A DNA stretch of 64,000 nucleotides from Candidatus Heimdallarchaeum aukensis (GTDB lineage Archaea; Asgardarchaeota; Heimdallarchaeia; Heimdallarchaeales; Heimdallarchaeaceae), in contig CP084166.1 of assembly GCA_021513695.1 (NCBI GenBank), forward strand, positions 992,001-1,056,000, read 5' to 3'. The notes beneath the pieces are model-generated. The model was not told where the DNA came from. It worked only from the letters and a program-made list of their open reading frames with translations, and made no database searches. Shown here one piece after another: positions 2,825-32,995 of this stretch. Every line of letters begins with the position of its first letter. The stretch's first letter is position 1. Made by a program: the position numbers and the translations under genes.

Positions 2825-3625
2825 TTAGAGATAGAAGAAAACTCCGGTATCGCCATCAAATTCTTGAGGTGTATCTCCACCGTCATAAGGATAAACGGAT
2901 AGAGCACTATCAAAAGTCTCTTCCATTGAAGCTGAACCACCATATATTCCAATAAGAGTGTATTCTAAGAAGTAATAGGTCCAAGCTCCATTTTGATGAG
3001 TAGGATCATCATATCCGTATCCATCGTCGGTGCAGGTTGTGGTCATATACACCTTAGCAGCATTAGCGTTTTCCATAACTTCATTCATACCGCCACTGAA
3101 GCAGTGATCAAGGAAAATGAAGGTGTTACTTACAGATGGGGCCATCATATCTTTAAGTTCTGAGTCATAAATTAGACCATCTTCTCCATTTTGACCAGCA
3201 CTTGTGTCCCACATGCATAATGCTTGAACATAGACACGAGTCCATCTGCTTCTTCCACCAATGTTGACCTCTGTTCCATGACCTGAACTTATGAATGCTA
3301 CGATATCGTTTTCGTCAGCTTGTGCAAGTATGTTTGCCCAAGCAGTTTTTACGTTATATTCTGTGGCTAATCCATCATATTGTGGATAATTTGCAGGATT
3401 GCTATCTCCTAATAATACTATTTGATAGCCTAATCCATTTAAGTAATTATACCAATCGGTAGCATCTTCATCGCAGTATGATAAGTCGCTAATTACGTCA
3501 TAGTCGCTTATACCGATAATAAGAGCATATTTGTCAACAGGATCAACTACAGCTTTTGCTGCTGTTATTGATGTAAACAATACCATCAAACCGATAAAAC
3601 CCATAAGGATTGTTTTTCTTTTCAT
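2825..3625 (-). CDS. Secreted caspase-like (clan CD) cysteine peptidase
   Basis: A signal peptide is followed by YALIIGISDY...SSGHG...FLDHCFSGG, the His-Gly and Cys dyad arrangement typical of caspase/legumain/gingipain-type peptidases. Confidence 0.5.
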   Translation of the reverse strand: MKRKTILMGFIGLMVLFTSITAAKAVVDPVDKYALIIGISDYDVISDLSYCDEDATDWYNYLNGLGYQIVLLGDSNPANYPQYDGLATEYNVKTAWANILAQADENDIVAFISSGHGTEVNIGGRSRWTRVYVQALCMWDTSAGQNGEDGLIYDSELKDMMAPSVSNTFIFLDHCFSGGMNEVMENANAAKVYMTTTCTDDGYGYDDPTHQNGAWTYYFLEYTLIGIYGGSASMEETFDSALSVYPYDGGDTPQEFDGDTGVFFYL

Positions 3626-4950: not shown

Positions 4951-6208
4951 ATGAGGAAAAAGGTGTGGCGAACTGAGGAAATATGGGTGAAAGATTCGAT
5001 CACTCTAAAACAGTTAGCACACAAGGTAAAAAACTTGTATAATCAAGCAAATTACATTATTAAGTATCAGTTAAGAAGAAGTAAATATTTCACAAAAGAG
5101 TTTGAACTAATGAATATTTTAAGGTATCACCCCGACTTACACAGCTTTACCTGGTCATACGGCACAACAGACGATAAAGTTTCTATGTTTAGCGTGGAAA
5201 GGGTATTTTAGGTCTTTAGAAGAATGGAAAAAGGAACCAGAAAAGTTTAACGGTAAACCTCGTCCTCCAAGATATAAGAAGAAAGAGGGACTAGGTATAA
5301 TCTATTTTACTAACTCTCAAGTGAAAATTAAAGAAGAAAAAGAAAAAGAAAAGAAAAGTAAAGGTAAATTCTTTATCTCTTTTCCTAAACGTGTAGGACT
5401 AAAGATAGTTACAAGACTCGACCCTTCAACTAAAGTGAAGTTTGCCCGGCTCATACCTATGGGAACGAAGTTTAAATTAGAGATAGTTTACGAGAAAGAG
5501 ATAGAAGAGCTAAAAGAACGACCAGCAGAAAGAGTTTTAGCTCTTGTTCTGGGAGTGAATAACCTTGTAGCTGGTTTGACCACTATTCCTGGTGAAAAAG
5601 GCTTCCTGATAAATGGTCGGCCCATTAAAGCTGTTAATCAGTGGTTCAACAAACGTAAAGCAAAATTACAGTCAATCTATGACAGACAAGGGTTAACCAC
5701 TTGGGGAAGAAAAATGCTCACCCTCCAGTTAGAGCGAATGTGTAAAATAGCTGACTATTTCCATAAAGCAAGTAGAAAAATAGTAGACTACTGTTTAGAA
5801 AAAAACATTGATACAATAGTTATAGGTTATAACCCCCGATGGAAACAGAAGGTTGATATGGGTAAAAAAAATAACCAAAACTTCGTTTTTATCCCCTTCA
5901 AAACCCTCATTGATAAAATCACTTACAAAGCAGAAGAAAAAGGAATAAAAGTTATTCCTACCAAAGAATATTACACTTCTGTCTGCAGTTTCTTGGATAA
6001 TGAAGAGATAGCTTTTCACACTCATTATGCTGGTAAAAGGATCCACCGTGGACTGTTTATCAGTGCCCAAGGATTAAGAATTAACGCTGATATCAACTCT
6101 GCAGGTAATATCGGTCGCAAAGTATTCCCCACGTTATTCTCTGTTATGTCTAACTACGGGATAGTCTGGGGTGCCGTGGTTCACCCTGTCCGTTGGAAAA
6201 TAAGTTAG
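4951..6208 (+). pseudogene. tnpB: tnpB (IS605 OrfB / RNA-guided nuclease family), frameshifted and catalytically degenerate
   Basis: The N-terminal 86 aa (frame 1, 4951-5211) and the remainder (frame 2, open from 5123 to 6208) join as ...YHPDLHS|LPGHTAQQTIKFLCLAWKGYFRSLEEWKK..., which matches the TnpB region around the conserved ...lpsqsaQq...afk.ff... segment. A +1/-1 shift therefore lies near 5125-5150. The RuvC-I segment reads ALVLGVNNL where GIDLG is expected, so the Asp is lost. The RuvC-III segment NADINSAGNI is retained. Only one Cys remains in the zinc-finger region. Confidence 0.65.
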
Positions 6209-6375
6209 CAAGTTAAGTTAGTCCAGCTCTTACGCTGTTCTTTCTCTTTCTTTATTTTTCGACCGACTAAACTTACTACTTCTTCCGATTTTTAATCAAA
6301 ATCGGAATTTGGGAAAAGGTAAACCATAAAACTTAAAACACCCTTTTTTTTGCTTGCTTATCTTAAGGTGTTTAA

Positions 6376-17947: not shown

Positions 17948-18841
17948 GTGAGGATTATGAGTGTTGAAGAGTATTCAGGTAAAGACAGAGTTAATTTGGA
18001 GTACCTTGTGAAAGTGATTGATGATTTAATTAAAAAAACAAATCTTATTGAGAAAATGTTAACTGATGAAAAAGAGGGTAGAATTAATCAATATAAAGAA
18101 TTAACAAAGAAAATTGAAAAAAGTGAAAAAGAAACTAAAAGTATTAACACTCAACTGTCAAATTTAAAAACAAAACAACTGTCAAGCCTTTCTAAAGAAA
18201 TTGAAGATTCAAAGAAGGCGTTATTAATTATAAAAGAAAGAATTGATGAAAAAGATAAAGATATTGAAAATCTTGAGATGAAAATTAGTGAAGTAAACAA
18301 ACTGTTTGAACAGTTTAAATCTAATCTAAACGAAGAAAAACAGATCAGAGAAGAAAAAGAACAAGAAATACAAGAGCTAAAAGAAAAGAATAGCGAACTA
18401 AGCATAAGGTTAGAAGAAAAAGAAGAAAGACTGAAACAACTTGAGAATGAATTAACAAAATTAAAAGAACAACTAGGTTCATTGAAAGATAAAAAAGAAA
18501 ATCTTACTTCTAAAATTGAGAAATTAAAGGAAGAAAAGAAAGAACTAAACGAAAAATTGAAAGAAATCGAAAAAGAATATAAAAACTACAAAGACAATAT
18601 GGAACCAGTAATTGCTCAAAATACACATATTAAAAAACTACTTGACGAGAGTTTACAAGGAAAAATATATCTTTACTTACTAGAAAAATATCCAAAAACA
18701 TCAAATATTGATGATATAGCGAAAGAAATAGACTCTCCTGCTGTGAAAATAAAGTCAGAAATACTAGCAATGCAAGAAATGGGTGTAATAAGATACAATA
18801 CTGATACAAGAGAAGTTTTTATCACAGAAAAAAAAGTCTAA
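17948..18841 (+). CDS. Coiled-coil protein with a C-terminal winged-helix domain
   Basis: A long E/K-rich heptad region is followed by a C-terminal wHTH-like segment LLEKYPKTSNIDDIAKEIDSPAVKIKSEILAMQEMGVIRYN. Confidence 0.5.
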   Translation: MRIMSVEEYSGKDRVNLEYLVKVIDDLIKKTNLIEKMLTDEKEGRINQYKELTKKIEKSEKETKSINTQLSNLKTKQLSSLSKEIEDSKKALLIIKERIDEKDKDIENLEMKISEVNKLFEQFKSNLNEEKQIREEKEQEIQELKEKNSELSIRLEEKEERLKQLENELTKLKEQLGSLKDKKENLTSKIEKLKEEKKELNEKLKEIEKEYKNYKDNMEPVIAQNTHIKKLLDESLQGKIYLYLLEKYPKTSNIDDIAKEIDSPAVKIKSEILAMQEMGVIRYNTDTREVFITEKKV

Positions 18842-19107
18842 GATATTTTTAGTTAATTTTTTTATCATTCTTTTATTTGAAAAAATAAGTAATACAAAAA
18901 AGAAAATGTATTACGACTTGTTTTTGATTTATCAACTCTAAGCCTATTTAAAAAAATCTTTTAATTAGGAAAAACTATTTTAATGGAATAAAGTGCTTTT
19001 TCAAAAAACTATGTAGTTGAGTGTGGTGCATATAAAATAAATATTTGTGGAGTAACTTTTTACTTTTGTGCATGGTAAGGTTTATAAAAATTTAATAAAA
19101 AAATAAC

Positions 19108-19368
19108 TTGATGATGCAAACGAAGTTTCCTATTCCTTACTCAACGGACAGTGAAAGAGAAGAATTTATTGATCATATGTTTTGCCCTATTTGTAAACTG
19201 TCAAGCAAAAAAGATATTGTCTCTAAGTCCGAGTTAGAAGAGCAAAGAATTACCTATATTGTATTCACTCTTCGTTGTGATAACTGTGATAAACTGTATG
19301 AAGTAACTTTTTTTGACGAAAATCAAATAGATTCAATTGAAAAATTGAAAACTTATTCATTTTATTAA
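19108..19368 (+). CDS. Small zinc-ribbon protein
   Basis: CPICK...CDNCDK. Confidence 0.35.
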   Translation: MMMQTKFPIPYSTDSEREEFIDHMFCPICKLSSKKDIVSKSELEEQRITYIVFTLRCDNCDKLYEVTFFDENQIDSIEKLKTYSFY

Positions 19369-19613
19369 CTTCTAATTTTATTCATATCTCTAAATCTATT
19401 AAGTTGTTCTTCATCATAGAATTTCAAAGGAAAAACTACAAAAAAATAATTTCACCTGATAATGGTCAAATTAAAGGTGTAGTTCTCTTCTTCTTTCTTT
19501 TTTGTTGTAAACAACAACAATGATTACTTGTTTTACACTTTGGACAATACATTCTGATCTTTAACTATATGAATTTTTCATTTGTTCCTTTATATGTTTA
19601 AGTAAACACAAGC

Positions 19614-20264
19614 TTATCTCCAGTCAAAATAAACTGAACTAAACTTTTCTGGAATTTCGATATTGTTAAGTAAAATAATGTCGAAACTTAATTTCTTAGG
19701 GAAAAATACAAAGTTAGCTTTTTGTAAAGGCTTAGAGTTATAATACGGAATATAAGGAGATTGTAATCCAACCCATCCTTTTGCATTACTTGTTTCTGAT
19801 AAGTACAGACTTAAATCTTTTGCTTCTTGTATAGATAGGTTTTTTATGTGGATAATGTCGATCCAACCAAAGGGAATAGAATTCCCAAAACCTGCTAATT
19901 GAAATTCCCAAGCAAGCATGAATCCTTTAACTTCTTTATTTTTTTCATAAATAACACAATTAGTAATTGGTTGTTCTAGTAACCATTTAAAATCTTCAAA
20001 GTTTGGCTCTATAGATGCGTTAAAATCTTTAGTTAGATTAGTAATCAACTCAAATAAAATAGGGATATCATCTTTTCTAAATTTCCTAAGATTTGCTCTG
20101 TTTTTTATTTTCTTATTCTTTTCTTTCAATTTGAAAAAATATTTTTCGTAAAATTTTAGTTTAACAACTTTTGAAACCTTTTCTGAATTGAAAACCCTAA
20201 TGATGAACTTGTTAGTTTCATATGGACGAAAAACTTGAAAACTTTTTTCTCTAGCAACTGACAA
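19614..20264 (-). CDS. Hypothetical protein; region with ambiguous, conflicting gene models
   Basis: A 216-aa ORF with a K-rich N-terminus. It conflicts with a GNAT-like fragment on the opposite strand (see 20261..20509). Confidence 0.3.
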   Translation of the reverse strand: MSVAREKSFQVFRPYETNKFIIRVFNSEKVSKVVKLKFYEKYFFKLKEKNKKIKNRANLRKFRKDDIPILFELITNLTKDFNASIEPNFEDFKWLLEQPITNCVIYEKNKEVKGFMLAWEFQLAGFGNSIPFGWIDIIHIKNLSIQEAKDLSLYLSETSNAKGWVGLQSPYIPYYNSKPLQKANFVFFPKKLSFDIILLNNIEIPEKFSSVYFDWR

Positions 20265-20509
20265 AGCTGTATCAATTCCATGTTGTAGGTTTTTTGGGCT
20301 TAATTCCTAGAGAATTTAGGATAAAGAAAGAAACTTACAAATTTGCTATTCCTGCTTGGTTAGCTGTACATCACCAACATAGAAGAAAAGGTTTAGCAAA
20401 AATGATGGGCAAAAAGATGCTTGAGATTGCTCAACAGGAATCATTTGATGGAGGTCTTGCTTTATTTGAACCAGAACAACATCGTTTGTTTTCTTGTAAA
20501 CAGCTCTAA
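20261..20509 (+). pseudogene. GNAT acetyltransferase motif-A fragment (possible gene remnant)
   Basis: FAIPAWLAVHHQHRRKGLAKMMGKKMLEIAQQESFDGG matches the GNAT motif A (R/Q-x-x-G-x-G/A) core. No upstream N-terminal half lies in frame, since there is a stop at 20258-20260. Confidence 0.25.
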
Positions 20510-20834
20510 CAAAATAGTTTTTCTTAACTGTTGGAGAACCAAAAATTAACTTTATAGTTTTACCAGAAAAAAGAATAGAAGCTCCTTCTTCAATAGCTGC
20601 AGGGTCAGATAAGAAAGATTCAGAGAGTAGATCAGCTATTTTATTGTATTCTTTTTCTTCCAGCGTATATTGTTCTATTAGATAATCCTCATTATTCATC
20701 TGTTTCAAAAACTTGAAGTTGTTTTTATTTTTTTCTCGATTTAAGAAAAAAGAGAAGTCAAAGATTTTTACAATTGAACAGTAATAGTCTAAGTTCGACA
20801 ATAATAGTCTATATCCGATAGTAATAATAAACAC
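20346..20834 (-). CDS. Hypothetical protein, possibly only the N-terminal ~100 aa are real
   Basis: MNNEDYLIEQYTLEEKEYNKIADLL... looks protein-like. The C-terminal third overlaps the GNAT-motif fragment on the opposite strand and looks less protein-like. Confidence 0.25.
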   Translation of the reverse strand: MFIITIGYRLLLSNLDYYCSIVKIFDFSFFLNREKNKNNFKFLKQMNNEDYLIEQYTLEEKEYNKIADLLSESFLSDPAAIEEGASILFSGKTIKLIFGSPTVKKNYFVRAVYKKTNDVVLVQIKQDLHQMIPVEQSQASFCPSFLLNLFFYVGDVQLTKQE

Positions 20835-20854
20835 TTTATTAATACAACGATAAA

Positions 20855-21361
20855 TTGAAAAGTTTTATATTTGTGTGTTATTTTATTAAAGTGGCAAAGA
20901 AAAATAAAGGAAGAAGAAAAGTGATTGAGTCAGTCTATATTATTTCCCGAACAGGATTACCTTTACTTTATGTAGATTTTGTTTCACAAGAAGATGATGT
21001 AGATGCCGTAACTTTATTTTCTGGAATAATTTCAGCGATACAAGTAGCAATGGCTGAAATTGATGTAGGTGTTCCGTCATTCTTTGATACAGAAAAAAAT
21101 GAAATCTTCATGAATGTAACAGAAAAATTTGCTATTGCTGTAGTAAAAAACCAAGAACCAATAGATAGAAATGAAATGAATAAACTAATGGATCAAATTC
21201 AAACCCTAGTATCATTTGATCAAGAAGTGGAAGATTTTAGTACCATTAGTGATGAAACAAAAAATAAAATTTCCAAAAAAATAAGGGAAATAGTTAATAA
21301 CTGGGAAGACTATATTAGCGAGAGAGAAGCAACAAAAAGAATAACGGAATCATTATGGTAA
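20855..21361 (+). CDS. Roadblock/LC7 (MglB-like) domain protein
   Basis: VIESVYIISRTGLPLLYVDFVSQEDDVDAVTLFSGIISAIQVAMAEIDVGVPSFFDTEKNEIFMNVTEKFAIAVV follows the Roadblock beta-alpha-beta-beta-alpha pattern. The true start is probably an internal GTG; the track starts on an alternative codon. Confidence 0.6.
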   Translation: MKSFIFVCYFIKVAKKNKGRRKVIESVYIISRTGLPLLYVDFVSQEDDVDAVTLFSGIISAIQVAMAEIDVGVPSFFDTEKNEIFMNVTEKFAIAVVKNQEPIDRNEMNKLMDQIQTLVSFDQEVEDFSTISDETKNKISKKIREIVNNWEDYISEREATKRITESLW

Positions 21362-21378
21362 AAAGGTGAAAAATACAA

Positions 21379-22122
21379 ATGGTTGTCTGGCAAAATAAAA
21401 TTCCAATAAGTTCTATAATCTTTGAACTAGTGGTTGTTATTGCGCTAACTTTTATGGTAATAACAATTTTTGCAAGGTATTTTGCAAAAAGAAAAAAACC
21501 TGTGTTATATCTGGCTTTAGCATACCTGTTTTACGATCTTGCAACTTTAACAAGCTGTATCGGTCGGTGGTTAGGTTATTTCTCTTCAATTCCCTATACC
21601 GAGTTCTCATATACTGACTTTACAACCTTATTTGCATATGTGCTAATGGCTATAGCGAACGTATTTATTGCTGCATTTATTGACACAATATTTATTCAAA
21701 AAGGAGTAGATTTTGTCGCATTCTTTGCTATATTGAGCGGAATAATAATAGGTATGATAGTCCCTATACTGAATTTTGAATGGGGAAACATGAGATCACA
21801 TGTCTTAATAGTATCTTACCATTTAATACTTTCAATATTAATATTTCTAATACTAGCAATTGTGTCTTTAAGAGAAGCTAAAATGAATAAAAAGAAAATA
21901 GCAAAAATAGGTTTCGCTCTAATTGGAACCTATGCTATATTCATGATTCTATTATTTGTTTCATTTACATCAGATTCACTGCTTATAACTTATGTAGACG
22001 CATTTTCAAAGGGATACTCTCCTGCATATTACTTTGGATGGACACTTTTAGTTATAGGATCAATAATAGGTTATCTTGGACTAATTATGCCTAAATGGTT
22101 CGTAAAGATGCTTAAGTTATAA
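21379..22122 (+). CDS. Polytopic membrane protein (about 7 TM)
   Basis: Hydrophobic helices throughout. Starts 18 nt after the Roadblock gene. Confidence 0.5.
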   Translation: MVVWQNKIPISSIIFELVVVIALTFMVITIFARYFAKRKKPVLYLALAYLFYDLATLTSCIGRWLGYFSSIPYTEFSYTDFTTLFAYVLMAIANVFIAAFIDTIFIQKGVDFVAFFAILSGIIIGMIVPILNFEWGNMRSHVLIVSYHLILSILIFLILAIVSLREAKMNKKKIAKIGFALIGTYAIFMILLFVSFTSDSLLITYVDAFSKGYSPAYYFGWTLLVIGSIIGYLGLIMPKWFVKMLKL

Positions 22123-22207
22123 TTAAATTAAATAAAATATAAAATCACTTTTTTCTTTTTTTTTAATATTACTTCATTATTCATGAGTTGAAATTTTACT
22201 TAATTTC

Positions 22208-22412
22208 TTCAGGACTCTACCCAACCAGTCAACAAACATATCGAAAGTTGTGAGGACTGGGTTAAGAGAACATGAAAGACACAGTCTTAATTAAGTTCTC
22301 TAGGGGGTTCATCTCCTGATTCCGGGCACTCATCACTCCCACAGGGAAGACCGGGTGTCGTAGGAATGAAACCTACGTCTTTAAGCATCTAGCTCAAGAC
22401 ACTATATAAATG
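22208..22412. ncRNA. Candidate structured non-coding RNA (GC-rich island with several hairpins); class not assigned
   Basis: About 200 nt are near 50% GC inside a 470-bp intergenic gap in a ~30% GC genome. Hairpins include cgtagg-aatgaaa-cctacg, agagaac...gttctct and cagtc...gactg, plus the palindrome cttaattaag. Confidence 0.25.
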
Positions 22413-22593
22413 ATAATTGATTATATAAAGACAGCTGAAAAGTCTTGACACTCCCCCATATCGTGTAATCTTTCTAATAACTCCACAAACTAAAAATTTA
22501 GTTCTTTACGTAAAAAAGTATTTCATCTATATTTGTGTTAAGCAAAAATGGTTGATGAAACATATTCTTTATAAAAGTTAATGTGAAAGATAA

Positions 22594-23313
22594 ATGCGTA
22601 ATGTGGGTTTTATGAACAAATCATCCGTGAAAAGAAATTTAATGATTGTAAGAGAACAGGATGTTGTTGTTACTGGCGGTGTGGTTTTTATTGGAGATGG
22701 ACATACTGGCAAAACGCATACAGCTCTTAATCTTGTAAGAAATAAGGATAGATATAAGAAAACAGACTTGATCTCGAAGTCAATAAATGTAGAATTTGAC
22801 TATTTTGTTTATCAATCTAATTACCAACAGTATAAATTTACAATAAGTGCACAATTGTTTATATTTCCCGGGCAAAAAGGACGAGCGAAAAAAGGAGAAG
22901 GGTTAGCATTTGAGGATGCTCTAGACCTGTATTTTGATGTTAGAACGGTGAAAGAGGTTATTGTTCTAATACTAACTTTCAATCTTACAGATATAGCTAC
23001 ATTTCAAAACTTAGAATATTGGGTTAAAACAGCTATAGAGAATAATTTAGTCTCAGAAGCAACTAACATAATTTTGTTAGGTACTCACTACGATAAGAAA
23101 TCAAACATTGCTGTGAATGAAACAGATATTATACATGGAAAAAAATTTGTTCAAGAACAAATTGCTAATGAATTGAATATTGATTTTCCTCTGAAACAGA
23201 TCACTGAAGTGAATATATCAAATTTGACAGAAGAAGGTATCGAAAATTTAATTGGAGCGATTATAGACGCTTTTTTCAACGTTTTTAATATAGATGAGTT
23301 TAATTTAATTTAG
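22594..23313 (+). CDS. Ras-superfamily small GTPase (divergent)
   Basis: P-loop VVFIGDGHTGKTH, a switch-II-like FPGQKG and an NKxD-like LLGTHYDKK. The true start may be the internal MNKSS. Confidence 0.6.
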   Translation: MRNVGFMNKSSVKRNLMIVREQDVVVTGGVVFIGDGHTGKTHTALNLVRNKDRYKKTDLISKSINVEFDYFVYQSNYQQYKFTISAQLFIFPGQKGRAKKGEGLAFEDALDLYFDVRTVKEVIVLILTFNLTDIATFQNLEYWVKTAIENNLVSEATNIILLGTHYDKKSNIAVNETDIIHGKKFVQEQIANELNIDFPLKQITEVNISNLTEEGIENLIGAIIDAFFNVFNIDEFNLI

Positions 23314-30686: not shown

Positions 30687-31174
30687 TATATAATAATTAA
30701 ATCATACGAACTTAAAAAAGTGATTATTATCAAATTTATTTTGCAAAAAAAAGTAATTTCTATTATTCTTTATGCTAAAGGGTATTTGGAAATAAAACAT
30801 GCTTATTACACCCTATTCAAAAATTCAAACTAGTACTTAAAATAACTAAAATAATTTTAGTAAAAGTGAATTTAACATCTATCTAAATCTTAATAAAATT
30901 TTAACATTGTTTGAATTCGGTGGCAAAAAATGGGTGAATACGTTTGTCTACAAAGATTTTATGAATAATAAAGTATTCTCACTTAGCAGACCCACTAAAA
31001 AGCCACAGCAGTATTTTTCTAGCTACTTGGAGTTAATAGGTAATACACCTTTAGTTTTTTTGAATAAGGTGAGTAAAGCTATTAACCACGAACTCTATGA
31101 TTTACTTTTTTACGTAAAGTTTTTCGCGCTCTGTCTTGCAAGAGAGAAAACAAGTAAAAGTTTAATCTCTTGAA

Positions 31175-32995
31175 CTCAACCAAGCCATACAATGCTATGA
31201 AGAGGATGAGACAGACATCATACACGAATCGTGGGAATCATAAAGAAGAAAAGAACTAAAAACTCTTTTCTTCACTCCACGAGAGACAAAAAGAAAGAAA
31301 GATTTCCTCCTCCTACAGGAGAGAATTTGTCCTTTCGTTTTTGTCTACTGGGACTGCAACCAATGGCTGAGCCCTAGGCAAACAGTGAAATGGGTAGAAC
31401 TGTATCTTTGACCAGTGAGGTAATCAGTGATAGTGTTTCCTTGAGGACTGAAAAGAGCACCAAGGAACTTACGAGCGATATTCATTGCTCCTGTGAGGTC
31501 AGAGTGGAAAGTGTAATTGCAAGAAGAACAATGAACTAAACCTCTTACTGGACGGACAACTTTCCTTCCACAACGAGCACAGTGAGAAGATGTCCCTTTT
31601 TCCTCTATCGTTAATATTCGGTGAGGGTCAAAACCTCTTAATATTAGTGCCCGACGGAGAAGAGTAAGAACAAGGTAAAAATTCCACTGATGAAGTTTCC
31701 TGCGAAACTTACGAGTACTTTTACCTTTCTCTTTTCCTTTCTCCTCGCGAACATGTTTAGGGTAACCTACAACGACGAAAAGGTCATACATTCGCGCATA
31801 GGTCTCTATCGTCTGCACAACCTCACTTACAAATTGGTAAATATAGGCTCGTTTAACGTTTCTATATCTTCTTCGAAGAAGACTAAGAAAACGATAAACT
31901 TGATGTTTTTTACCCGACTGGTCGTTTAAAGCTGCTTTTCTCTGAAGACGGGAAAGTTTGACTTTATATCGATGGTTGACTCTATTCCACTGTTTGGTAT
32001 GCCAGAATTTTATCTCCTTACTTGTTAATTTCTTTTTAGGGGTTAGTAACACTCCTGCAGCAGGAATGTTTATCCCTAGATCTATTCCCAGCACAGCTGG
32101 GGGGAGAGAAGAAGAATTCTCTTCTTTAGGAGGATAAAAAGAAGAAGGAAGAACTCTTAGTTGGAAATACACCCACCATTCATGTGTAGAACGTTTATAT
32201 CTTAGTTCTAAACTTTTCACCCTCCCTTTTTTTAACTCTTTCTGGTGGAAAGTGCTCATCTCTAAAGGTAACCATAACTTCTGATGATAGGAGGTGTTTC
32301 TTCTCCACGTATCTAACGAGTCTCTTATCCCCACCCACCAACGAGTGAGAGTGTTATTCTTCTCTTTAGGTAAATGGACGAGAACGAACCTCTTTGCATT
32401 AATTAGTTGTCTTCTCACTCTCTTTATTGGAGGACGAGTAGAACTGGGTTTATAACCTTGTTCGTATAATTGCACAGCTATATCTCTACATTCTTGAAAT
32501 TCGTTGTGGGAACAATAAGGGAACATTTTCTTCAGGTCGTGAGGAACAGTCTTTCTTCTCTCTTCTTCTTTAACTTTTGAAGTCGTTAGCGTCAATTCAT
32601 CTAGTTTTCCTCTATGAACTCTTATTTTCCCTTTTTTAGTTTTAGCACATATTTTTCTTCTGTTGTGATGAATTATTCTCACATACTTCTCTATTATCCT
32701 CGTGTCTCTCCCCGTTATTCTCCTTAACCTTTCCTTTTTCCTCGTCGTCAACACCTCATTCTTTATTCTCACTTTCAAGGTTTTGACGACGTCCTCCACC
32801 ATTCTTTTCCTTCCTTCTTTTCTTTTTCTGTTTATTTTTTCTCTTGTTTTTTCTTCTTATCTTTTTTTATTCTACTTTTTTTCCCTATAAAAACCCCTCT
32901 CCTCTTTCTCCTCTCCTTTCTTCTCTTTTTTCTCTCCTTCTTCCTCAACAACTGTAAATTACGTGAAAAATAGACACATGGTGACACAGGAAAAA
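31175..32995 (-). mobile_element. IS200/IS605-family TnpB-only element: leader, tnpB and a 3' flank that may encode a guide RNA
   Basis: The upstream leader on the gene strand (32803-32990 on +) is purine-rich and carries ctataaaaacccc. That sequence is homologous to the leader of the first element (cttactttttttccctat..aaaaccc shared). The 3' flank at 31175-31345 shares tctttctttcttt and gtggagtgaaga with the first element. Confidence 0.55.
31345..32802 (-). CDS. tnpB: TnpB (IS605 OrfB-family RNA-guided nuclease homolog), apparently intact
   Basis: RuvC-I is AVLGIDLGINIPAAG, the zinc finger is HCARCGRKV...CSSCNYTF and RuvC-III is HSDLTGAMNIARKF. The RuvC-II position reads VVVGYPKHV, with no Glu at the canonical position. 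The other copy has the same change, so it may be a family feature. Confidence 0.75.
   Translation of the reverse strand: MVEDVVKTLKVRIKNEVLTTRKKERLRRITGRDTRIIEKYVRIIHHNRRKICAKTKKGKIRVHRGKLDELTLTTSKVKEEERRKTVPHDLKKMFPYCSHNEFQECRDIAVQLYEQGYKPSSTRPPIKRVRRQLINAKRFVLVHLPKEKNNTLTRWWVGIRDSLDTWRRNTSYHQKLWLPLEMSTFHQKELKKGRVKSLELRYKRSTHEWWVYFQLRVLPSSFYPPKEENSSSLPPAVLGIDLGINIPAAGVLLTPKKKLTSKEIKFWHTKQWNRVNHRYKVKLSRLQRKAALNDQSGKKHQVYRFLSLLRRRYRNVKRAYIYQFVSEVVQTIETYARMYDLFVVVGYPKHVREEKGKEKGKSTRKFRRKLHQWNFYLVLTLLRRALILRGFDPHRILTIEEKGTSSHCARCGRKVVRPVRGLVHCSSCNYTFHSDLTGAMNIARKFLGALFSPQGNTITDYLTGQRYSSTHFTVCLGLSHWLQSQ

Follow-up and report, generated by a model that had tools for sequence, protein, structure and literature searches.

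Protein-less derivatives of IS200/IS605 elements were defined in Haloquadratum (PMC3119063) as PATEs (palindrome-associated transposable elements) and are also found in Geobacillus; they "often encode omega RNAs", which are acted on in trans by the TnpB of other IS elements (PMC10055086). The omega RNA of TnpB carries its guide at the 3′ end, and in that of ISDra2 the guide-adjacent bases form a pseudoknot that is conserved in the Cas12 guide RNAs (PMC10097598). Here we describe a GC-rich intergenic island in a stretch of 64,000 nucleotides (hereafter the window, whose numbering is used throughout) of Candidatus Heimdallarchaeum aukensis, contig CP084166.1, positions 992,001 to 1,056,000. The island is probably the scaffold of a TnpB-type omega RNA, placed on the minus strand of a 342-bp protein-less PATE (22183-22524) for which TnpB and TnpA would be provided in trans. 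It is thus most likely a guide-RNA module of a selfish element, of the kind already published, and not a housekeeping RNA.

The island lies in an intergenic gap of 471 bp (22123-22593) between two plus-strand open reading frames (ORFs), 21379-22122 and 22594-23313. An initial annotation of this DNA had described a block of near 50% GC in a 30% background within a gap of about 470 bp, and both descriptions are borne out: 22208-22412 has 47-52% GC against 29.8% for the window as a whole, 100-nt segments reach a GC fraction of 0.48-0.52 at 22250-22399 versus 0.16-0.35 in the surroundings, and the best 150-nt segment (0.48) is the joint highest of the 64 kb (mean 0.298, standard deviation 0.050). 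The other top GC islands checked (2964-3350 and 6021-6270) fall within ORFs. Every stem and string named in that annotation was found where it had been placed, namely CGTAGG 22359-22364/CCTACG 22372-22377, AGAGAAC 22265-22271/GTTCTCT 22295-22301 and CCAGTC 22225-22230/GACTGG 22255-22260, together with CTTAATTAAG at 22286-22295 and TAGCTCA at 22390-22396. The block is likewise unreadable as protein, with stops in all frames, and its six-frame fragments gave no Pfam match and no coding remnant. When the single sequence was folded and compared with dinucleotide shuffles, the plus strand gave z = -3.2 (0/200 shuffles as good) and the minus strand z = -2.1 to -2.2. Hence, the GC-rich folded feature is real and exceeds chance fluctuation. 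The span proposed for it, 22208-22412, falls short of the functional unit, which extends from 22183 to at least a TATA-like box at 22429, and of the whole element, which reaches 22524.

The element is mobile and present in many copies. In the sister species Candidatus Heimdallarchaeum endolithica the corresponding locus (L004) aligns to 22123-22184 and then straight to 22522-22556, so that the window carries a 342-bp insertion relative to this empty site. The dinucleotide AT is common to both junctions, and 22185-22526 are equally valid limits. The copies in L014, L016, L020, L022, L024, L026, L027 and L028 share the limits of the window copy and differ in their flanks; eight copies count as full length, the one in L028 being short by about 10 nt at a contig end. 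Five occurrences of the terminal 26-mer were counted in the H. endolithica chromosome, and a scan of Joint Genome Institute (JGI) metagenomes yielded 10 more copies, giving 15 further matches to the terminal sequence, be they full, truncated or cut; one hit of the metagenome scan (L019) was a chance match within a gene and was discarded. Block edges interrupt two H. endolithica copies (L015 and L018), which may be tnpB-linked. A core 23-mer found no match in the genome contig collection, from which the window's genome is absent or masked; the other copies differ from it at three positions. A core 22-mer and a terminal 20-mer found nothing among viral contigs. Over their whole length the full copies show 82-87% identity, and in the core the column identity is about 94%. 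A diverged subfamily of two copies (L023/L021) has the AT-rich half, with the AT-rich spacer (22430-22499, no strand assigned) recognized in the alignments, replaced by unrelated sequence. The window copy is itself without 33 nt that are present in all other main-family copies, the junction being near 22472/22473.

Insertion is not accompanied by target duplication. The junctions have only AT in common, and the three bases preceding it agree at 9/24 positions over eight copies, which is the chance level; a 5-bp TTCAT duplication suggested by the window copy was not upheld in the others. In view of (i) the absence of an ORF, the 342 bp being too few for a transposase gene; (ii) the absence of a target duplication beyond AT, and (iii) palindromes built on TTACGTAA like those of a tnpB element 9 kb away, the element is, by its sequence features, assigned to the PATEs of the IS200/IS605 family. 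At each end there is an imperfect palindrome based on TTACGTAA, with CAT and the boundary 11 nt further on. At the left end in transposon terms (22500-22519, minus strand) the palindrome, AGTTCTTTACGTAAAAAAGT on the plus strand with TTACGTAA at its centre, shows little or no variation in any of the full copies, and matches at 17/17 positions CTTTACGTAAAAAAGTA in the end palindrome of the window tnpB element (31102-31118), whose right end reads ...CTTTACGTAAAAAAGTAAATCAT/, where the slash marks the boundary. The left ends of tnpB elements, in the 32981 region of the window and in L031, are of the related form ...CAT/G(A or T)GTCTATTTTT(C)ACGTAATTT. At the right end, the palindrome GAAAUUAAGUAAAAUUUC (22190-22207, minus strand), which would also be the terminal hairpin of the RNA, is invariant save for one loop base; in covariance-model alignments it falls opposite the palindrome at the right end of tnpB elements.

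The transposon-encoded end motif (TEM), CUCAU (22183-22187, minus strand), is invariant wherever the end of a copy is present, and sets the right-end boundary between 22183 and 22182. AACTCAT is the last sequence common to the tnpB elements of loci L032 and L033 before their flanks diverge, and the tnpB elements of the window, L004 and L031 end in ATCAT. The transposon-adjacent motif (TAM), identified by cross-copy comparison, is target-derived and less constant than the TEM; it is TAGAT in the window copy (22525-22529, minus strand) and NNCAT over the copies, with C at -3 in 7/10 (p = 1e-4). At the matching place tnpB elements have CCAT (window) or GTCAT (L032 and L033). The insertion sites are quasi-palindromic, NCAT/RR on the minus strand, with purines at +1 and at +2 in 12/13 cases each.

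What the core encodes, and on which strand, was addressed by covariance models, R1 built from ten minus-strand copies and R2 corresponding to R1 without the terminal palindrome and end motif. R1 matched all the copies and otherwise only tnpB 3′ untranslated regions (3′UTRs), always on the coding strand. In the window, a single non-self match was significant, at 19.6 bits (E = 2e-5 with filters off): it covers 31089-31292 of the minus strand, the tnpB 3′UTR up to the right end of that element, and the runner-up reached 10.3 bits. The 3′UTRs of the tnpB genes of L004 and L031 gave 10.2 and 11.7 bits, their matches ending AAAUCAU/, and those of L033/L034 and L032 were also matched. The alignments reaching the 3′ end of the model stop at the right-end boundary. 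With R2 the tnpB 3′UTRs of the window, L004 and L031 still ranked first (13.7, 9.4 and 8.0 bits). Local alignment of the minus strand with the 3′UTRs of L032 and L033 gave z = 5.1 and 4.1 (0/400 dinucleotide shuffles), versus z = -0.8 and 0.4, not significant, for the plus strand against the same two regions. The blocks AUGAGUGCCC and AUCAGGAGAUGAA are identical in the L032 3′UTR and nearly so in that of L033. After the tnpB stop codon, L032 (TnpB family P0058) and L033/L034 (family P0070) carry AAUGAGUGCCC and AUCAGGAGAUGAAUCCUUUGAAC (AGCAAGAGAUGAAUCCUUUGAAC in L033), followed by CCAGUUUAGGAGGAGUCUUGGAAG in its L032 version and the terminal AAUAACUCAU/, beyond which they diverge; the counterparts in the small element are UUAUGAGUGCCC, AUCAGGAGAUGAACCCCUUAGAGAAC, CUGGUUGGGUAGAGUCCUGAAG and CAACUCAU/. 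The terminal AACUCAU/ is common to the element and to L032/L033 at the right-end boundary, and from there the flanks diverge. These two 3′UTRs (L032 3037-3316 and L033 3067-3349) are about 280 nt long and have long exact motifs in common with the small element. A three-sequence consensus fold of tnpB 3′UTRs suffered from poor alignment and added little.

The core is, by these comparisons, homologous in one orientation only to the omega-RNA region located 3′ of tnpB genes, which places the RNA on the minus strand, left unspecified in the initial annotation, and makes the left end of the element in the window its right end in transposon terms. A first model, in which the transposon was read with the plus strand on top, so that its TAM was YYAT and its core adjoined the left end, was dropped when the homology to tnpB 3′UTRs fixed the orientation; it had made the RNA look unlike the known guide RNAs, none of which is known to sit at a transposon left end. 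The closest relatives of the RNA are those of TnpB family P0058/P0070, proteins that are 37-38% identical to the TnpB of the window. As judged by sequence, therefore, the element combines the RNA core of one TnpB lineage with the palindromes of another.

The predicted omega-RNA scaffold, delimited by R1 and by alignment to the L032/L033 3′UTRs, comprises about 218 nt (22183-22400, minus strand), that is the GC island plus the terminal hairpin. It begins with two 5′ hairpins within 22360-22400, H1 (22377-22400) and H2 (22360-22376, the CGTAGG/CCTACG stem), with 98-100% of cells paired in the ten copies. Then come the motif AUGAGU (22328-22333) and, downstream of it, a conserved block, GCCCGGAAUCAGGAGAUGAACCCCC. 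The most conserved motif block, GUGCCCGGAAUCAGGAGAUGAACCCCC (22303-22327), includes the GGTTCATCT of the initial annotation; the evidence for it is the presence of AUGAGUGCCC and AUCAGGAGAUGAA in L032 and, nearly unchanged, in L033. The 3′ domain (22225-22301) contains the hairpins AGAGAAC/GUUCUCU (22265-22301) and CCAGUC/GACUGG (22225-22260), both kept in all copies. Overall, 97% of cells are paired in the consensus structure over ten copies, two pairs are changed on both sides, and the consensus folds better as minus than as plus strand (-52.6 vs -46.9 kcal/mol). Compensatory changes were encountered in one hairpin: in the L023/L021 subfamily the tip of CCAGUC/GACUGG is exchanged for another sequence in which pairing is retained (CG to AU, CG to UA), and G-C to G-U and U-A to U-G changes in the same hairpin keep pairing on the minus strand only. 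Given the close similarity of the copies, covariation is limited overall.

The boundary-adjacent ACUCAU (22188-22183) is predicted from sequence to pair in all copies with AUGAGU (22333-22328), 145 nt upstream, in a long-range, pseudoknot-like helix of eight modelled pairs, with 92.5% of cells paired. The same AUGAGU...ACUCAU is seen in L032 and L033. In the tnpB element of the window the corresponding strands read UAUGAUU/AAUCAUA, so that both sides have changed, from G-C to U-A. The helix would correspond to the TnpB/Cas12 pseudoknot.

A TATA-like box, TTTATATA (22422-22429, minus strand), lies 30 nt upstream of the first homologous and structured position. Its TATATAA is the same in each of the ten aligned copies, those of the diverged subfamily among them, although the positions around it vary, and the L023/L021 sequences diverge about 25 nt beyond it. 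In archaea the TATA box is expected about 30 nt upstream of the start, and the box may act as a promoter with a predicted start near 22400. The tnpB-linked homologues are without such a box and are presumably made from the tnpB transcript. On the minus strand there is no T-run ahead of the boundary, so transcription would run into the flank and give a guide starting GAAUAAUGAAGUAAUA...; from this and the geometry of TnpB omega RNAs the guide segment is predicted as 5′-GAAUAAUGAAGUAAUAUUAA (22163-22182, minus strand).

This organization can be compared with that of the described systems. Like the omega RNAs of TnpB, both that of ISDra2 (PMC10097598) and the haloarchaeal sotRNAs (PMC10055086), the RNA is placed at the right end and read towards the flank, has a multi-stem scaffold in the range of 120-250 nt, and would pair its pre-guide bases with a segment 100-150 nt upstream as a pseudoknot. 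Unlike them, it belongs to an element without a tnpB ORF, the nearest tnpB being 9 kb away, is not cut from a tnpB transcript and apparently has its own TATA-like box. It would thus be an omega RNA that stands alone, in the way PMC10055086 describes for PATEs. Its scaffold has a GC content of 43-46%, against 33-39% for the tnpB-linked scaffolds in the same genomes, and it has no sequence similarity to the ISDra2 RNA or to any Rfam family. With the PATEs of Haloquadratum walsbyi (PMC3119063) and Geobacillus stearothermophilus (PMC10055086) the element shares its short length, the absence of protein and of target duplication, near-terminal palindromes like those of IS605-type elements in its own genome, strain-specific insertions and a homogeneous family. 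It differs from them in that the host is an Asgard archaeon and that the element is modular, with core and palindromes from different TnpB families. The Cas12f tracrRNA-crRNA and other Cas12 guides have the same guide-adjacent pseudoknot and 3′ guide (PMC10097598), whereas here there is no CRISPR array and the guide would be fixed by the insertion site. The IscB omega RNA (HEARO, RF02033) is also a structured transposon guide RNA bounded by the right end (PMC10055086); however, its guide is 5′ and it precedes iscB, and the element gave no HEARO match.

We propose the following course of events. Transcription would start near 22400 from the TATA-like box (22429-22422), cross the right end and continue into the flank, adding a guide of about 16-20 nt. 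The RNA would fold into the two 5′ hairpins and a multi-hairpin 3′ domain closed by the ACUCAU/AUGAGU pairing. A TnpA of the Y1 type acting in trans would excise the element and insert it beside an NCAT motif. A TnpB provided from elsewhere, possibly the one encoded at 31345-32802, would bind the RNA of the element and, loaded with it, cut the empty donor joint, composed of the TAM and the guide-matching flank. Recombination with a sister copy would then restore the element. Such a cut-and-restore scheme has been shown for tnpB elements and suggested for PATEs (PMC10055086). In this way the element would exploit two enzymes of its autonomous relatives, their transposase and their nuclease. The structure and the homology described above are direct comparisons; expression, binding and cleavage are the steps that we infer.

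The possible trans-acting partner in the window is a tnpB gene of 485 amino acids (31345-32802, minus strand), for whose exact protein Pfam PF07282 (Cas12f1-like_TNB) is recorded and which is 89-91% identical to Heimdallarchaeum proteins named "transposase" by NCBI. It belongs to an intact-looking IS605-type element at 31097-32981 (minus strand; gene 32802-31345), with the left end near 32981 (CACCAT/GTGTCTATTTTTCACGTAATTT) and the right end at 31097 (...GTAAATCAT/AGAG). Its 3′UTR with the right end (31097-31292, minus strand), matched by both R1 and R2 and ending ...GUAAAUCAU/AGAG, would be its own omega-RNA region, and is a candidate for a second unannotated omega RNA.

Several observations weigh against the reading proposed here. 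The kinship of the RNA does not pin down a cognate nuclease: of the named H. endolithica or H. aukensis proteins that the search gave, even those most similar to the P0058/P0070 family are only 37-38% identical, and the RNA of the resident TnpB family is more distant. The similarity to the RNA of the resident tnpB element is weak (19.6 bits), and when the core is aligned pairwise to the tnpB 3′UTR of the window, the result taken alone is not significant. The 17/17 palindrome match relates the left end of the element to the right end of the tnpB element, on the other strand. The ends of the element are near-inverted repeats, and the assignment of the ends, and of the strand used by TnpA, leans on the internal RNA homology and not on the ends themselves. 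The TAM (NCAT) is nearly the same as the TEM (CTCAT), which raises the question of how self-cutting is avoided, and the TAM of the window copy is TAGAT. A regex motif screen of 222 kb of sequence yielded no Y1 transposase. Evidence for the strand from wobble pairs is mixed in helices other than CCAGUC/GACUGG. The promoter is a prediction, as are the guide and the ends of the RNA. Finally, the RNA of the element has no Rfam match, either at gathering scores or at E < 10. The last point weighs little, because Rfam gave no match either on genuine Heimdall tnpB loci; the absence of an Rfam match, which the initial annotation would have taken as a refutation, is misleading for the same reason. The 5S rRNA genes of both complete Heimdallarchaeum genomes were, according to the authors of these genomes, not predictable with existing models (PMC8813620).

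A further-reaching interpretation, in our opinion doubtful, is that the element is a self-promoted, protein-less guide-RNA transposon whose scaffold is of the P0058/P0070-like TnpB lineage, a lineage without a close homologue seen in the two complete Heimdallarchaeum genomes, and that this scaffold has been re-tuned to hijack the resident, only 38%-identical TnpB (cross-family guide capture), or serves as a host-directed or regulatory guide acting in trans. If this were true, the unusually GC-rich, stabilized scaffold and the TATA-like box of its own would be adaptations to the absence of a linked nuclease gene.

It is unlikely that the element is a PATE carrying an inert relic of an omega RNA, left after deletion of tnpB, copied passively and neither transcribed nor used, the similarity among copies then reflecting a recent burst. 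The identity among main-family copies fits a recent spread, and in this respect also counts against the reading we prefer; the cognate TnpB of the closest family is not seen in the complete Heimdallarchaeum genomes, and truncated or rearranged copies exist (L017 and L029/L025). However, the L023/L021 copies, in spite of their divergence, retain the core and, at an unchanged distance from it, the TATA-like box, with changes at the hairpin tip that preserve pairing. The GC of the stems is maintained in a genome of 30% GC, and a TATA-like box at the right distance would be unexpected in a former part of a tnpB transcript.

Another candidate is a conventional miniature inverted-repeat transposable element moved by a DDE transposase, with imperfect terminal inverted repeats (GAG...CTC plus palindromes), a 2-bp AT duplication and the GC core as unrelated cargo. 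We regard such an origin as very improbable. In its favour are the AT at both junctions and the 13/19 match of the ends when compared as inverted repeats, a resemblance that the ends of the tnpB elements, which share the palindromes, also show. Against it, the arrangement of palindrome, 11 nt and TCAT matches IS605-type tnpB elements of the same window and genomes, the terminal AACTCAT is common to the L032/L033 tnpB elements, and the core is homologous to tnpB 3′UTRs.

Little room is left, similarly, for a structured plus-strand RNA at the transposon left end, such as a leader RNA or a self-splicing intron of the IStron type. With single sequences, folding of the plus strand is slightly the stronger (z = -3.2 vs -2.1), and on this strand two predicted helices have invariant G-U pairs and the left flank ends in YYAT in 12/13 loci. 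Yet Rfam gave no match to group I or other ribozymes, the element as read on the plus strand ends in T and not in the G required at a group I 3′ splice site, and both the tnpB-3′UTR homology, restricted to the minus strand, and the consensus fold favour the opposite strand.

A stable housekeeping RNA, as the initial annotation had supposed on account of the GC island in an AT-rich archaeal genome (signal recognition particle RNA, RNase P RNA, an intron-bearing tRNA, or a small RNA of the C/D or H/ACA class), is practically untenable. Rfam recognized nothing of these classes or of any other, at gathering scores over the whole window and with only noise at E < 10 over 22050-22650, ARAGORN found no tRNA in the window, and such a role is contradicted by the dispersed copies, the empty sister-species site and the borders at transposon ends. 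The strings GUGAUGA and CUGA on the minus strand of the window copy resemble C/D boxes, but GUGAUGA is restricted to the window and L024 copies, the others having UUAUGA, as is the case for most copies, or UUAUUA. Readings as C/D box, H/ACA, hammerhead or group I RNA based on motifs were rejected for want of conservation or of a model match, and a scan for bacterial promoters and terminators was set aside as uninformative, the models being bacterial and the host archaeal. What does stand is the proposal of an unannotated structured RNA, conserved in ten aligned copies with its helices kept and homologous to the RNA 3′ of tnpB; its assignment to a housekeeping class does not.

The concepts of PATE and omega RNA are published, and neither has been reported for these genomes in PMC8813620: the main text and supplements of that paper (Wu et al.), which places Heimdallarchaeia phylogenetically closest to eukaryotes among the Asgard archaea, make no mention of MITEs (miniature elements of the kind considered above), PATEs, TnpB or IS605. 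On the preferred reading, an unannotated GC island is explained as a guide-RNA gene and a second is flagged at 31097-31292. Heimdallarchaeia would carry protein-less IS200/IS605 elements that retain only the transposon ends, a putative promoter and the omega RNA, which fits the modular, trans-acting picture proposed for bacteria. The locus provides a compact, GC-stabilized scaffold together with candidate TnpB partners, and illustrates that annotation based on Rfam overlooks such RNAs and that such repeats break short-read assemblies here.

Assembly breaks were seen in three sequencing runs, whose Logan contigs (L001-L003) break at 22210, 22474 and 22498. These positions are repeat borders, and the breaks are attributed to the effect of repeats on the de Bruijn graph. 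The contig that begins at 22474 does so just to the right of the 33-nt junction; the others end at 22210 or begin at 22498. Among the incomplete copies, one in H. endolithica (CP084167.1; L017 7196-7285) retains just 90 nt of the right-end side, and is found inside a pyroglutamyl-peptidase-like (pcp-like) gene without its middle part. Two JGI sequences (L029 1778-2154 and L025 3829-3974) represent the site in the genome that copy L014 2001-2377 occupies in H. endolithica, and in them the segment between the pseudoknot strands (ATGAGT...ACTCAT, inverted repeats of 6-7 bp) is inverted, which suggests recombination or cleavage at the short ATGAGT/ACTCAT sites.

The exact proteins encoded next to the element were found only in Logan assemblies of the SRR159889xx runs and in JGI sample 3300033141. 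Between the flanking membrane protein and one of H. endolithica the identity is 91%, and in that species a tnpB element (L004 39-1785; L031 2001-3700) lies about 1.5 kb upstream of the orthologous gene. Downstream of the membrane-protein gene the synteny differs among all three relatives compared (window, L004 and L008); the neighbourhood is a rearrangement hot spot. In the window, the genes at 17948-23313 encode a coiled-coil protein, a Roadblock/LC7-like protein, the 247-amino-acid membrane protein, which belongs to no Pfam family, and a Ras/Roc-like small GTPase, followed downstream by a protein of 1535 amino acids without annotation. Roadblock and small-GTPase genes are often called eukaryote-like in Asgard genomes.

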